Program-made: the position numbers and the translations under genes
The notes under the pieces: model-generated
What the model was told of the DNA's origin: nothing
The model's database searches: none
The model's input: only the letters and a program-made list of their open reading frames with translations
Assembly: GCF_009649845.1 (NCBI RefSeq)
Contig: NZ_WJIE01000009.1
Coordinates: forward strand, 96,685 to 160,684
Reading direction: 5' to 3'
DNA from: Polyangium spumosum
GTDB taxonomy: Bacteria > Myxococcota_A > Polyangia > Polyangiales > Polyangiaceae
DNA length: 64,000 nucleotides
Shown: piece by piece, positions 46,698-52,640 of the stretch
How the letters are laid out: each line of letters begins with the position of its first letter
How positions within the stretch are numbered: position 1 is the stretch's first letter

Positions 46698-49600
46698 TCA
46701 CTGGAAGCTCGCCGCGGTGACGGCCTGGACGTTGGAGAGGATGCCGGCGACGTTCGCCGGCGTCGACCACGTCCCGCTGCTCATGCGCGTGTGCTTCAGG
46801 CTCCCGCCTTCGATGAGGAGCATCTCCGCGTCCTGGCTGCCGATGCCCGGGACCACGACCGGCGGCGCGGTGAGGGTGATGTTGACGCCCGCGACCTTCG
46901 ACGCTGACGTATTCCAGCCGTTCGTCCCGTCGTAGATGACCGAGTAGAGCCGGCTGCTGTCGGACGTGTTCCGGTAGACGAGGACCGCGCCGTTGTTCGG
47001 GAGCGGCGCGAGCCCCGGCCGGAGGTTCGTGTTCGCCTTGTCGTTGCCCGCTTCGTCGCGGACGATGGCCGGGGCCGACCAGGTACCCGAGTACCGCGAG
47101 AAGGCGATCTGGTTGGCGCTGTTCACGAACGTCATCAGCAGATCGCCGCCGCTGAGCCGGATGACGTTCGGCTGGATCGTCATGTTCGCCGTGACGTTGC
47201 CCGTGGTCGCGGCCGTCGCCCAGGCGCCATTGCTCCCCCGGAGCTGGAAGAACACGTCCGAGCTGCTTTGCTCGGGGAACACGAGCGCCGCGTTGCCCTG
47301 GGCGTCGAGAGCCACCCAGTCGAGGTCGTGGATCGTCGCGCTCGTCGGGGCCCCGGTCCACTGGTAGGGCGTGAGCCACGTCGACGACGACGGCGTACCG
47401 ACGTGCTGGACGAAGTGGTACCGGCCCGCGCCCGGCCCCTGGAAGCGGAACACGAGGCCCGCGAAGGGACCCGACGCGCTCACCACCGGGGCGCCGTTCG
47501 CCCCGACGCCGCTCGGCAGGTCCGCGAGCGTCGACCACGTGTTGGCCGCACCGTTCCACCGCGTGAAGCGCAGGTTGTCGGCGTCTCCCCGCACCACGCC
47601 GATGGCATGACGCGTCGTCGTGATGGCGATCGAGGGCGTGCCCTGCACGGCGGCGGAGGCGAGCGTCGCGGAGCTCCAGGTCGACCCGTTGAACACGGAG
47701 CGCTGGAGGGTGTAGGGCGCGCTCGTGCCCGACGTGGAGAGCAGCACCACGGTGGGACAGAGCTGGCAATCGGCGCCGCCGCAGTCCTCGCCCGTCTCGG
47801 TGCCGTTCTGCGTGCCGTCCGTGCAGCTCGCCGGCACGCAGAGGCCGCGGTCGCAGGCGTCGCTCGTGCAATCGCCGTTGCCCGCGCAGGCCAGACCATT
47901 GACGCAGTCCGTGGGGCACGAGCCGCCGCAGTCGACGTCGGTCTCGTCGTCGTTCTGCACGTTGTCGTTGCAGGTCGGCGGCAGGCAGACGTTGCCGCTG
48001 CAGACGCCGCTCATGCAGTCGCTCGGGACGCTGCACACCTTGTTGTCGGCGCATTTGCCGCAGGTCGGCCCGCCGCAGTTGATGTCGGTCTCGCTGCCGT
48101 TCTTCACCATGTCGGTGCACGTGGCCGGCTGGCACGCGCCGTCGACGCAGACGCCCGACACGCAGTCGTCGCCGCCGCCGCAGCTCTGCGCCACGCACTT
48201 GTTGTTCGCGCCGCAGGTGCTCGAGCCGCATTGCGCGCTGGTCGTGCAGTCCATGCCCGCGTCGGCGCACTTCACCGTGCACGTGCCGCCGCAGTTGACG
48301 TCGCTCTCGTCGCCGTTCTGGATGGTGTCGGACGGGCAGCAGAACGGACCGTTGTCCACGAAGCCGTCGCAGTTGTTGTCGAGGCTGTCGCAGGGCGACA
48401 TATCCTCGGCCTCCGACTGCACATCCTGTTTGCAGACGATCCCGCCGCTCTCGCAGGCCAGCGTGCCGTCCGCGCAGACGCCCTCCGCGCCCGTGTCGCA
48501 GGCCTCGCCGCCGCCCGGGTTGCCCTCGTCGACGTTGCCGTCGCAGTTGTTGTCGAGGCCGTCGCAGGCCTCGGCCGACGCTTGCACGTTCTGATCGCAG
48601 ACGATCGCGCCGTTCGTGCAGATGGTCGTGCCGTCCGCGCAGACGCCCTGCTGCCCCGTGGGGCACGCGAGGCCGCCGCCCGGGTTGTCCTCGTCCGTCT
48701 GGCCGTCGCAGTTGTTGTCGAGGCCGTCGCAGGTCTCGACCGACGCCGACGTGATCGGGTTGCAGAGGACCGAGCCGCCCGTGCAGATCGTCGTGCCGTC
48801 CGCGCAGACGCCCAGCTCACCCGTGGGGCAAGCGAGGCCGCCGCCGGGGTCGCCCTCGTCGATGTTGCCGTCGCAGTTGTTGTCGAGGCTGTCGCAGGTC
48901 TCGGCCGACGCCTGCACGTTCTGGTTGCAGACGGTCGCGCCGTTCGCGCAGGTGGTCGTGCCGTCCGCGCAGACGCCCGGAGTGCCCGTGTCGCAAGCGA
49001 GGCCGCTGCCCGGGTTGCCCTCGTCGACGTTGCCGTCGCAGTTGTTGTCGAGGCCGTCGCAGGTCTCGGTCGACGATTGCACGTTCTGGTTGCAGACGAT
49101 CGCGCCGTTCGCGCAGACGGACGTGCCGTCCGCGCAGACGCCGAGCTGCCCCGTGGGGCAGGCGAGGCCGCCGCCCGGGTTGTCCTCGTCGACGTTGCCG
49201 TCGCAGTCGTTGTCGAAGCCGTCGCAGACCTCCGGCGACGCCGCCGTGTTCTGGTTGCAGACGAGCGCGCCGTTCACGCAGGCGTTCGTGCCGTCCGCGC
49301 AGACGCCCGGCTGGCCCGTGCCGCAAGCGAGGCCGCCGCCCGGGTTGTTCTCGTCGATGCTGCCGTCGCAGTCATTGTCGAGCCCGTCGCAGATCTCCGG
49401 CGACGACTGCACGTTCGGGTTGCAGACGGGCATCCCGCCCGAGCACGCCGTCGTGCCGGCCGAGCAGACGCCCGGCTGGCCCGTGACGCAAGAGAGCCCG
49501 CCGCCCGGGTTGCCCTCGTCGATGCTGCCGTCGCAGTCGTTGTCGAGCCCGTCGCAGATCTCCGGCGACGACTGCACGTTCGGGTTGCAGACCGGCGTCC

Positions 49601-52600: not shown

Positions 52601-52640
52601 GCACGATCGCCCAGTGATTGAAGCGCTTCTTGCTCATCAT
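46698..52640 (-). CDS. giant lipoprotein (1980 aa) with about 30 tandem MopE-like Cys-rich putative metal-binding modules, four larger Cys-rich modules and a beta-rich C-terminal domain
   Basis: ATGATG at 52640 (MMSKKRFNHWAIVLLGGGLVASC = lipobox). Repeating E.CDGxDN(D/N)CDGxxDEGNPGGG..C.TGQPGVCAxGTTAC..G...C module of about 40 aa. C-terminal about 330 aa without Cys. Confidence 0.85.
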   Translation of the reverse strand: MMSKKRFNHWAIVLLGGGLVASCTNILGIDTSYDPNPCADLSIDPQDCGQGACHVFLDKDERCLNGLPTECVEGTPNDQEVCKDGIDNNCDGNVDEGCPCDAGQTQECYNGSTDESKFGVCMKRGTQICEAGAWSECDSQVLPAAEECGDGQDNDCDGKVDENCPCTPGEPSKPCYGGPEGTEGVGVCRSGTQKCQASGTWGDCDGDVVPGTESWNGADDDCDGKTDDGYLCAKGTKQACYDGPGGVDSDEITPIGGVTPECKAGEQECIEGQWGPCLGQVKPKDEFCDGKDNDCNHVVDDGSFQVAELCNNKDDNCNGLVDEGNPGGGEVCNTGKPGPCKDGVTACVSGGVECQQNIQATTELCNGVDDDCNGAIDDGDPEGGTPCNAPDAVGACANGKTKCQTGKLTCVPAAPSTELCNGVDDNCDNIIDNGNPGSGQPCQVPGQLGVCAGGVTNCEGGGIQCTQVVTPTTEICDSKDNDCNGATDENVQGTGTPCTVAGLQGECAKGATACQNGVVICAQTKQPIAEICDGFDNDCNGSVDEGDPGGGATCTVQGQVGVCGIGVIKCTSGALSCAQTKFPSPELCDGQDNDCDTQVDEGNPGGNVPCNTGKPGSCAAGVFECISGSAICTQTTTPQPEACDGIDNDCDGQTDEGNPGGGGSCTVPGLSGECAKGVLACQNGVLACTQVNQAQLEICDGLDNNCNAQIDENNPGGGVSCNTGQPGICAPGTTACTDGSIKCNQNQQPSSELCDGQDNDCDGQTDENNPGGNQDCTTGLPGICAAGKTNCSSGSIVCNPNLQPAPETCDGLDNNCNGTVDEGNPGSGVACSTGQPGVCATGTTACANGSIQCNPNIQPSPETCDGLDNNCNGTADEGDPGSGVACSTGQPGVCATGTTACTNGSIKCNPNIQPSLESCDGLDNNCNGTSDEGNPGGGAGCDTGQLGICKAGTTACSNGSILCNQNLQPSTEVCDGLDNNCNGAVDDGNPGGGLSCVTGQPGVCSAGTTACSGGTPVCNPNVQSSPEICDGLDNDCDGSIDEGNPGGGLSCVTGQPGVCSAGTTACSGGMPVCNPNVQSSPEICDGLDNDCDGSIDENNPGGGLACGTGQPGVCADGTNACVNGALVCNQNTAASPEVCDGFDNDCDGNVDEDNPGGGLACPTGQLGVCADGTSVCANGAIVCNQNVQSSTETCDGLDNNCDGNVDEGNPGSGLACDTGTPGVCADGTTTCANGATVCNQNVQASAETCDSLDNNCDGNIDEGDPGGGLACPTGELGVCADGTTICTGGSVLCNPITSASVETCDGLDNNCDGQTDEDNPGGGLACPTGQQGVCADGTTICTNGAIVCDQNVQASAEACDGLDNNCDGNVDEGNPGGGEACDTGAEGVCADGTLACESGGIVCKQDVQSEAEDMSPCDSLDNNCDGFVDNGPFCCPSDTIQNGDESDVNCGGTCTVKCADAGMDCTTSAQCGSSTCGANNKCVAQSCGGGDDCVSGVCVDGACQPATCTDMVKNGSETDINCGGPTCGKCADNKVCSVPSDCMSGVCSGNVCLPPTCNDNVQNDDETDVDCGGSCPTDCVNGLACAGNGDCTSDACDRGLCVPASCTDGTQNGTETGEDCGGADCQLCPTVVLLSTSGTSAPYTLQRSVFNGSTWSSATLASAAVQGTPSIAITTTRHAIGVVRGDADNLRFTRWNGAANTWSTLADLPSGVGANGAPVVSASGPFAGLVFRFQGPGAGRYHFVQHVGTPSSSTWLTPYQWTGAPTSATIHDLDWVALDAQGNAALVFPEQSSSDVFFQLRGSNGAWATAATTGNVTANMTIQPNVIRLSGGDLLMTFVNSANQIAFSRYSGTWSAPAIVRDEAGNDKANTNLRPGLAPLPNNGAVLVYRNTSDSSRLYSVIYDGTNGWNTSASKVAGVNITLTAPPVVVPGIGSQDAEMLLIEGGSLKHTRMSSGTWSTPANVAGILSNVQAVTAASFQ

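Follow-up and report, generated by a model that had tools for sequence, protein, structure and literature searches.

A large cysteine-rich lipoprotein of Polyangium spumosum with tandem MopE-motif modules and a predicted lectin-like propeller: a candidate stalked adhesin or receptor

Among the genes in a 64,000-nucleotide stretch of the Polyangium spumosum genome (contig NZ_WJIE01000009.1; hereafter the window, with a GC content of about 70%) is one on the minus strand, referred to below as the stalk gene, whose product combines a lipobox, a long array of cysteine-rich modules bearing the MopE motif and a C-terminal beta-propeller. The open reading frame (ORF) listing gives it as a single frame, open from 46698 to 52700. 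Its probable start is the ATG at 52640, which has a GAGG 6 nt upstream and a GGAGG slightly further up, and translation from this codon yields 1,980 aa, identical to the representative-library protein P0004. The GC content at codon positions 1, 2 and 3 is 0.59, 0.55 and 0.96 (GC3 0.956), which is typical for a high-GC genome and indicates a real gene. A consensus scan found no promoter-like sites, and the terminator-like matches that it returned were regarded as spurious, since all fall inside coding sequence. The parts of the gene, in the order of the protein, are as follows.

46698..52640, minus strand: whole gene, encoding the 1,980-aa predicted lipoprotein (ORF, GC3, ribosome-binding site); stop codon at 46698-46700
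52572..52640, minus strand: signal peptide and lipobox, aa 1-23, MMSKKRFNHWAIVLLGGGLVAS-C, read from the sequence
51720..52571, minus strand: N-terminal Cys-rich region, aa 24-307, comprising the conserved segment after the lipobox and four longer or degenerate MopE-motif modules
48408..51719, minus strand: array of 20 canonical tandem modules, aa 308-1411, 3,312 bp (module alignment, Tandem Repeats Finder)
47751..48407, minus strand: junction and neck, aa 1412-1630, a partial MopE motif followed by 3.5 neck modules, with 35 Cys
46701..47750, minus strand: C-terminal Cys-free seven-bladed beta-propeller, lectin-like, aa 1631-1980 (AlphaFold2 model, Foldseek)

The original prediction, made from the letters of the window, had described a lipoprotein, and the N-terminus bears this out: a basic KKR n-region and a hydrophobic core (WAIVLLGGGL) lead to the lipobox V-A-S-C, so that the signal ends in the bacterial pattern [LVI][ASTVI][GAS]C with Cys23 as the predicted site of lipidation. 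The lipobox is kept in the syntenic ortholog P0103, as VSS-C, where it is followed by the same CTNILGI[DE] motif. This stretch belongs to a wider post-lipobox motif, C-[TAQ]-[NQ]-[IV]-L-G-[IFL]-[DE], present here as CTNILGID at aa 23-30 (window 52551-52574, minus strand) and also in P0103, L001 1-115, P0019, P0007, P0098, P0105 and P0035. A regular expression finds it in 6 of 140 proteins (the 137 matches of the exhaustive propeller search described below, plus P0001-P0003), and two more were recognised by eye; the motif possibly directs lipoprotein sorting or export to the surface.

The tandem Cys-rich, MopE-like modules that had been foreseen are present, in dimensions other than those expected, which were about 30 modules of roughly 40 aa (120 bp) over 3.6 kb. 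Motif spacing in the protein gives a canonical module of 55-56 aa, and Tandem Repeats Finder gives a DNA period of 165 bp (over 48430-50564); there are 20 canonical modules, to which four degenerate modules and one partial module are added. Each canonical module opens with the acidic loop ExCDGxDN[DN]C[DN]GxxDE and continues with a Gly-rich beta-hairpin segment with four Cys, and the alignment of all 20 has the consensus ExCDGLDNNCDGxxDEGNPGGGxxCxTGQPGVCAxGTTACxxGxxxCNQNxQPSx with 12 invariant columns (E1, C3, D7, C10, D15, C25, G31, C33, G36, C40, G43 and C47). The Cys spacing C-x6-C-x14-C-x7/8-C-x6-C-x6-C holds in 20/20 modules, and the whole protein contains 185 Cys (9.3% of its residues), while the 1,106-aa array contains no His, no Trp and a single Met. 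The four N-terminal modules (aa 82-307) are longer or degenerate, with 8 Cys and about 65-75 aa each, the last one being truncated; their motifs start at aa 82, 148, about 220 and 288, and the N-terminal Cys-rich region matches PF11617 in three stretches (E 4e-12). The partial module lies after the array, at aa 1417.

Compared as DNA, modules 1-7 share 56-72% identity with every other module and modules 8-20 reach 71-94%, the most alike neighbours being modules 10/11 (92%) and 13/14 (94%); by these identities, modules 1-7 are old and modules 8-20 form a younger block. Exact direct repeats of up to 82, 56 and 53 bp occur within the array at offsets of 165 or 495 bp. Such long exact repeats, together with near-identical neighbouring modules, mean that the array is fairly called recombinogenic, as had been proposed for a long imperfect tandem array. 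Long off-frame ORFs do run through it on both strands, as had also been remarked; one example, 48616..51921 on the plus strand (1,101 aa), is a shadow frame that has its third-codon positions in common with the real frame.

Behind the array, where four larger Cys-rich modules had been expected, there is indeed a Cys-rich region, made up of three full copies and one half copy of a module of the type C-x-D-x3-N-G-x-E-T-D-[VI]-[DN]-C-G-G. A Pfam scan matched no family to this neck, and the same module type stands directly before the propeller in P0005, P0006, P0019, P0021 and P0103. For the protein as a whole, Pfam and NCBIfam scans returned nothing besides PF11617 (Cu-binding_MopE), and the NCBIfam scan returned no family at all.

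The last 350 residues contain no Cys and are all-beta in the AlphaFold2 model, as had been anticipated for the C-terminal domain, for which the scans found no Pfam or NCBIfam model. Out of 1.84 billion representatives, an exhaustive HMMER search with this domain recovered 137 (E 0.001 or better); a word-indexed search had given just 3 proteins. The model, built on an alignment of 50 family members, has a predicted local distance difference test score (pLDDT) of 90.3 and a predicted template modelling score (pTM) of 0.90. Photorhabdus PLL/PHL lectins take all of the first 22 places in a Foldseek search of the PDB (E 6e-15 to 2e-12, template modelling (TM) scores 0.69-0.74), and sialidases in the same list reach TM scores of just 0.47-0.56. 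The model is a seven-bladed fold that superposes on PLL, PHL, BP39L and CV39L, and the head is thus predicted, with high model confidence, to have the PLL/BP39L/CV39L bacterial-lectin fold. Sequence identity to PLL-family lectins is 10-17%, and a profile of 50 propeller members searched against PDB sequences (E up to 10) retrieved no PLL, BP39L or CV39L chain; it gave just weak sialidase matches, the best being NanC and NanB of the pneumococcus, which align by way of an Asp-box-like GxWS motif at non-significant E values of 0.025-0.08. The family has seven repeats of about 50 aa, with an invariant or near-invariant Trp in 6/7 of them (W72, W125, W177, W224, W279 and W328), and the 50-sequence alignment conserves only Trp, Pro, Gly, Leu and Ala; Arg, Asp, Glu and Tyr are nowhere invariant or nearly so. 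This lack of conserved charged residues in the family argues against an enzyme. In lectins of the PLL family, the pockets that lie between blades take up fucose and O-methylated sugars, with stacking on Trp (PMC6943638). The known members (Photorhabdus PLL, PHL and PLL2-5, Burkholderia BP39L and Chromobacterium CV39L) are soluble and stand-alone, whereas the head described here sits on a lipoprotein stalk.

The original prediction had also read the array as a possible extracellular metal sponge, by way of the copper-binding MopE motif, and had called for a Pfam scan. PF11617 does match strongly (340.8 bits, E 4.2e-104, in 20 stretches, with a Pfam gathering threshold of 27 bits), and the family label formally stands for the 1,980-aa protein. 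The alignment covers only profile positions 13-30 of 30, that is, 16 residues of each 55-residue module; a single module scores 23.5 bits over its residues 1-16 (profile positions 15-30), which is below the 27-bit cutoff. What is matched is the acidic loop. There are 24 occurrences of the pattern D-x-[DN]-x-[DN]-[GNAT]-x-x-D, compared with 0.2 in composition shuffles. The 20 modules agree without exception at E1, C3, D7, C10 and D15; every one of them has D or N at positions 4, 8, 9 and 11, and 19/20 have D or N at position 18. The array modules thus carry a DxDxDG-type loop with conserved oxygen ligands and Cys on both sides, and this loop most likely binds Ca2+. The six Cys at fixed spacing, considered together with the Sec-type lipoprotein signal, most likely form disulfides.

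Several Ca2+-binding or copper-binding systems offer a comparison. The high-affinity Cu(I) site of MopE is formed by His132, His203 and kynurenine-130, which derives from Trp (PMC3423442), and the copper site of CorA is analogous; in each of the two, monodentate acidic ligands also form a structural Ca2+ site, apart from the copper site (PMC3912023). The window protein has no similarity to the copper-binding domain of MopE* or CorA, and the ligand set of two His and a Trp-derived kynurenine is absent from the array. Searches of PDB sequences with the whole protein (to E 1) gave nothing meaningful and no MopE* or CorA, the matches to RNase A and plectasin being noise at E 0.1 or worse, and a 20-module profile (to E 10) found no MopE*, CorA, teneurin, thrombospondin (TSP) or LDL-receptor (LDLR) chain. 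In the 1.5 A crystal structure of the teneurin-4 C-rich domain, solved by Meijer et al., three Ca2+ are coordinated by E, D and N residues at corresponding places of the motif, and Ca2+ stabilises the protein (PMC9058538); the motif of that domain, CxDxxDNDxDGxxDCxDPxC, is related to the loop of the array modules, and Tucker et al. had aligned the teneurin cysteine-rich motif with PF11617 (PMC3278476). Teneurin C-rich, thrombospondin type-3 and LDL-receptor class A repeats all share with the window modules a D-x-D-x-D-G-x-x-D-type loop between Cys, which in those three binds Ca2+. The window modules have another Cys pattern and an extra 4-Cys hairpin half, and no match in sequence or fold is significant. 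PF11617 itself has been described as non-specific (PMC6189053). Among the peptides tried, it scored only a Volvox gametolysin peptide and one window module, and left unmatched both the MopE* N-terminal peptide (PMC3423442) and a human teneurin-1 peptide. An AlphaFold2 model of three tandem modules, from an alignment of 18 paralogous windows, is poor (pLDDT 55, pTM 0.22) and has only a beta-hairpin per module; the best Foldseek hit of this model in the PDB, a fibrillin pair of calcium-binding EGF domains, is not significant (E 3.8).

The relatives of the protein share a constant head on a variable stalk. In nearly all of 77 full-domain matches the propeller ends 0-8 residues before the C-terminus, and a lipobox pattern is found in about half of 59 listed family members. 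What precedes the propeller is either a low-complexity linker of about 100-150 aa or a Cys-rich stalk, of differing families and up to about 2,600 aa, and some relatives carry the same head on stalks without any MopE motif. P0005 (locus L001), whose propeller shares 52% identity with that of the window, is the closest relative; its ORF, which stays open up to the edge of the contig, has the lipobox-type start '...CAQILGFDEEP', then a Gly-rich linker and six full modules only. The first three of these match window modules 2-4 in sequence and order, so the array of the window has expanded. The sole relative in the genome collection found with a single-protein query is L002, a 2.8-kb contig of a Polyangium metagenome-assembled genome, again with a propeller 52% identical. 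The syntenic ortholog P0103 (2,371 aa, locus L003, assembly GCA_029946505.1) shares 41% identity with the window protein in the N-terminal 434 aa and 30% across neck and propeller; between these parts it carries another kind of array, built of repeats of about 95 aa with a CxSGxCVDGVCC motif. The variation in repeat number that had been suggested as a check by comparative genomics is found, with 20 modules here, six in P0005 and a different array type in P0103. Around the ortholog, identities to the window proteins are 83% for an M28 peptidase, 83% for a 354-aa protein, 72% for a 204-aa protein, 75% for a tetratricopeptide repeat (TPR) protein, 54% for a coiled-coil protein, 83% for a methyltransferase and 65% for a pesticin-like protein; by this comparison of the window with L003, the stalk gene product diverges much faster than its neighbours. 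That anchor, neck and head are kept while the stalk is expanded or replaced fits a spacer and not a stoichiometric metal store. Close homologs of the modules come from Archangium, Polyangiaceae and Myxococcales records, under public names such as 'MopE-related protein' and 'putative metal-binding motif-containing protein'. In PF11617 proteins of Myxococcota, as in the window protein, CDGxDNDCDGxxDE recurs in tandem in Cys-rich secreted proteins or lipoproteins; the window array differs from these in being unusually regular, at 20 copies, and in being joined to a lectin-like propeller.

Considering these results together, the protein is, on balance, probably an adhesin or receptor in which a lipid-anchored stalk rich in disulfides carries a lectin-like head, rather than a copper sponge; of the two functions first put forward, that of an adhesin is the better fit to the evidence. 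The proposed design runs from anchor through stalk and neck to head, on a protein that would belong to the cell envelope and is probably surface-exposed. Each module would be a small disulfide-stapled unit whose loop offers E1, D4, D7, N8, D/N9, D/N11, D15, E16 and N/D18 as Ca2+ ligands, and 20 such units together may form a long, stiff, protease-resistant stalk that keeps the head off the membrane. The ligand of the propeller is most likely a glycan, or else some other surface molecule, of prey, kin cells or the matrix. Through unequal recombination in the 165-bp array, lineages would soon come to differ in the length and type of their stalks. What the analysis establishes directly is the gene, the anatomy of its repeats, the match to the Pfam motif, the fold of the propeller at high model confidence, the distribution and architectures of that domain and the differing stalks of relatives; we infer that the loops bind Ca2+, that the Cys pair in disulfides, that the protein is exposed at the surface and that the propeller binds a ligand.

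A number of points weigh against this picture. The lectin assignment of the head comes from its fold, since no sequence match was significant, and the weak profile matches (E 0.025-0.08) point instead to sialidase propellers; the Trp of each blade may be structural, as in Asp-box repeats, rather than in contact with a ligand. The module fold, the disulfide pattern and the Ca2+ sites are deduced from motifs, because the three-module model is poor, and module residues were mapped onto teneurin by aligning short peptides by hand; PF11617 missed the human teneurin-1 peptide, and the module profile missed the teneurin, TSP and LDLR chains of the PDB. Exported Cys-rich copper stores do exist, Csp1 being Tat-exported, and they leave some room for metal binding through thiolates.

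The sponge idea holds that some 25 MopE-like motifs, or the 185 Cys, or both, would sequester copper or another soft metal outside the cell or in the periplasm, for uptake or detoxification. The summed PF11617 score, the metal-related public names of related proteins and the very high Cys content speak for it, as does the part suggested for acidic residues near the N-terminus of MopE* in Cu(II) sites of weak, micromolar affinity (PMC3423442); a gene resembling copper type II ascorbate-dependent monooxygenases also lies 10.5 kb away. Yet the array is without His and Trp, the ligand types of the Cu(I) site of MopE (PMC3423442), the Pfam match is confined to 16 residues of a D/N/E-rich loop with hard-ligand chemistry of the Ca2+ type, and PF11617 is non-specific (PMC6189053) and fails to score even the N-terminal peptide of MopE* to which Cu(II) binding has been ascribed. 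Neither the whole protein nor the module profile found a copper protein in the PDB, the invariant spacing of six Cys behind a Sec-type lipoprotein signal fits disulfides, no cop, cus, cue or multicopper-oxidase genes occur in the 64-kb window, and in relatives the same head sits on stalks lacking the MopE motif. Copper binding by the array is not supported, and the sponge is very improbable. A catalytic head, the propeller being an envelope-tethered, divergent sialidase, lyase or glycoside hydrolase and the stalk no more than its spacer, is also quite improbable: NanC and NanB are the top, though non-significant, profile matches through the Asp-box-like GxWS, and sialidase, glycoside hydrolase and polysaccharide lyase propellers do appear lower in the fold-search lists, but sialidases superpose at TM scores of 0.47-0.56 against 0.70-0.74 for the seven-bladed lectins, and the 50-sequence alignment has no near-invariant Arg, Asp, Glu or Tyr.

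A narrower version of the adhesin or receptor reading takes the protein for a polymorphic receptor of self and non-self or of prey, resembling TraA and perhaps cooperating with the adjacent type VI secretion system (T6SS); the propeller would give cell-cell recognition its specificity and would evolve under diversifying selection. TraA of Myxococcus xanthus, the receptor for outer-membrane exchange, is the closest functional analog in the same phylum, in architecture only: like the yeast Flo adhesins, it shares with the window protein a lectin-like distal domain, Cys-rich tandem repeats and a lipid-type anchor. Its own Cys-rich repeats have been proposed to form 'a rigid stalk', and TraA-dependent stimulation is raised by CaCl2 and blocked by EGTA (PMC3325183). 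The order of parts is reversed, TraA having an N-terminal PA14 head and a C-terminal MYXO-CTERM tag where the window protein has an N-terminal lipobox and a C-terminal propeller, and both the head folds (PA14 in TraA, propeller here) and the repeat families differ (TIGR04201 in TraA, PF11617-type here). In line with this, Pfam and NCBIfam scans, the sequence and the neighbouring genes gave no PA14 domain, no C-terminal tag and no OmpA-like or TraB neighbour. On the receptor's side stand the 30-41% identity of the syntenic ortholog against 65-83% for flanking genes, the resemblance of anchor, Cys-rich stalk and lectin-like head to the PA14, Cys-rich repeats and lipid tag of TraA (PMC3325183), the highly polymorphic nature of TraA (PMC6372800), and the presence of a T6SS cluster, VgrG and a pesticin-like putative effector within about 2.5-31 kb. 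The comparison spans two syntenic genomes only, however, no TraB-like OmpA partner lies beside the gene, an opposite-strand gene separates it from the toxin operon, and the neighbours of distant family members are unrelated; the low identity could come from replacement of domains or of the stalk rather than from an arms race. In its full form this proposal has a fast-evolving receptor, its propeller selecting specific surface glycans of prey or kin, its stalk length tuned by expansion or replacement of the array, and the contact so made serving killing by the T6SS and the pesticin-like effector, a scenario that we consider unlikely. If it were true, the C-terminal propeller would be a new, unannotated family of myxobacterial surface lectins.

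For annotation, the consequence is that the 'Cu-binding_MopE' label on large Cys-rich proteins of myxobacteria should not be taken as copper binding: the PF11617 motif is an acidic calcium-type loop, which here is predicted to build a stalk. A large Cys-rich repeat lipoprotein in a myxobacterium is unsurprising as a type, PF11617-type Cys-rich repeat proteins are already known to be common in Myxococcota, and adhesins combining a stalk with a lectin are an established design. What is new is the unannotated PLL-like propeller family, which has no Pfam or NCBIfam model and ends about 140 mostly lipoprotein relatives, its pairing with a 20-copy MopE-motif array, and the expansion or replacement of the stalk between relatives, a natural case of modules changing (6 versus 20, or another kind) while anchor and head are kept. 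Should the head be a lectin, these proteins would offer a set of candidate surface receptors with roles in predation, adhesion or kin recognition in Polyangiaceae-like myxobacteria.

The genes around the stalk gene that bear on these comparisons are listed below.

15921-28305, plus strand: T6SS cluster, with TssK/VasE, TssM/IcmF, TssB/VipA, TssC/VipB, Hcp, TssE/gp25 and TssF
35235-37571, minus strand: VgrG, with a MORN-repeat protein adjoining (block 34466-37571, minus strand)
38993-44140, minus strand: 1,715-aa pesticin/phage-lysozyme-like protein
about 44059-45603, minus strand: PKMT-type methyltransferase, preceding the pesticin-like gene
45644..46609, plus strand: 321-aa coiled-coil protein with an N-terminal hydrophobic helix, between the stalk gene and the toxin/methyltransferase block
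52745-53929, minus strand: TPR-containing protein immediately upstream of the stalk gene, with predicted hydrophobic segments near its C-terminus, ending ...VEIDYSF

The 1,715-aa pesticin-like protein is likely a T6SS effector module. The stalk gene had been placed directly beside the toxin/methyltransferase block; the block is nearby, and the coiled-coil gene on the opposite strand lies in between. A functional link to the block is unsupported and none is claimed, because of this intervening gene and because distant family members have unrelated neighbours. The ORF 44059..46536 on the minus strand, which overlaps the coiled-coil gene, is genuine only from about residue 312, the methyltransferase start; both this start and the coiled-coil gene are confirmed by the agreeing gene calls of their L003 orthologs (83% and 54%). 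Within the coiled-coil gene there is a tandem repeat at 45817-46235, of 20 copies of 21 bp, encoding heptad-like AKSGTE(L/P) and AKAREE(L/A) units.

On the other side, the L003 ortholog of the TPR gene (75%) overlaps the start of the stalk-gene ortholog there by 7 nt, which suggests co-translation. At locus L004 another giant Cys-rich gene has a similarly laid out TPR protein before it; a conserved TPR partner was nevertheless discarded, as BLAST shows no similarity between the window TPR protein and that of L004. L003 also differs from the window by an insertion or deletion, in that two extra opposite-strand genes (3999-6733, minus strand; 642 and 266 aa, without Pfam matches) sit between the orthologs of the 354-aa gene and the TPR gene.

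Further off, the monooxygenase-like gene mentioned above (PF03712/PF01082; 63206-64000, minus strand) is cut by the window end and is the sole copper-related gene seen in the window. Very large TPR-repeat ORFs occupy 871-11220, one on the minus strand (871-6009) and one on the plus strand (5716-11220), whose overlap of about 300 bp at their low-coordinate ends makes the boundaries doubtful. Also upstream of the T6SS cluster, at 11617-13239 on the plus strand, lies a gene for an FG-GAP/VCBS-repeat protein, with propeller repeats like those of integrin alpha.

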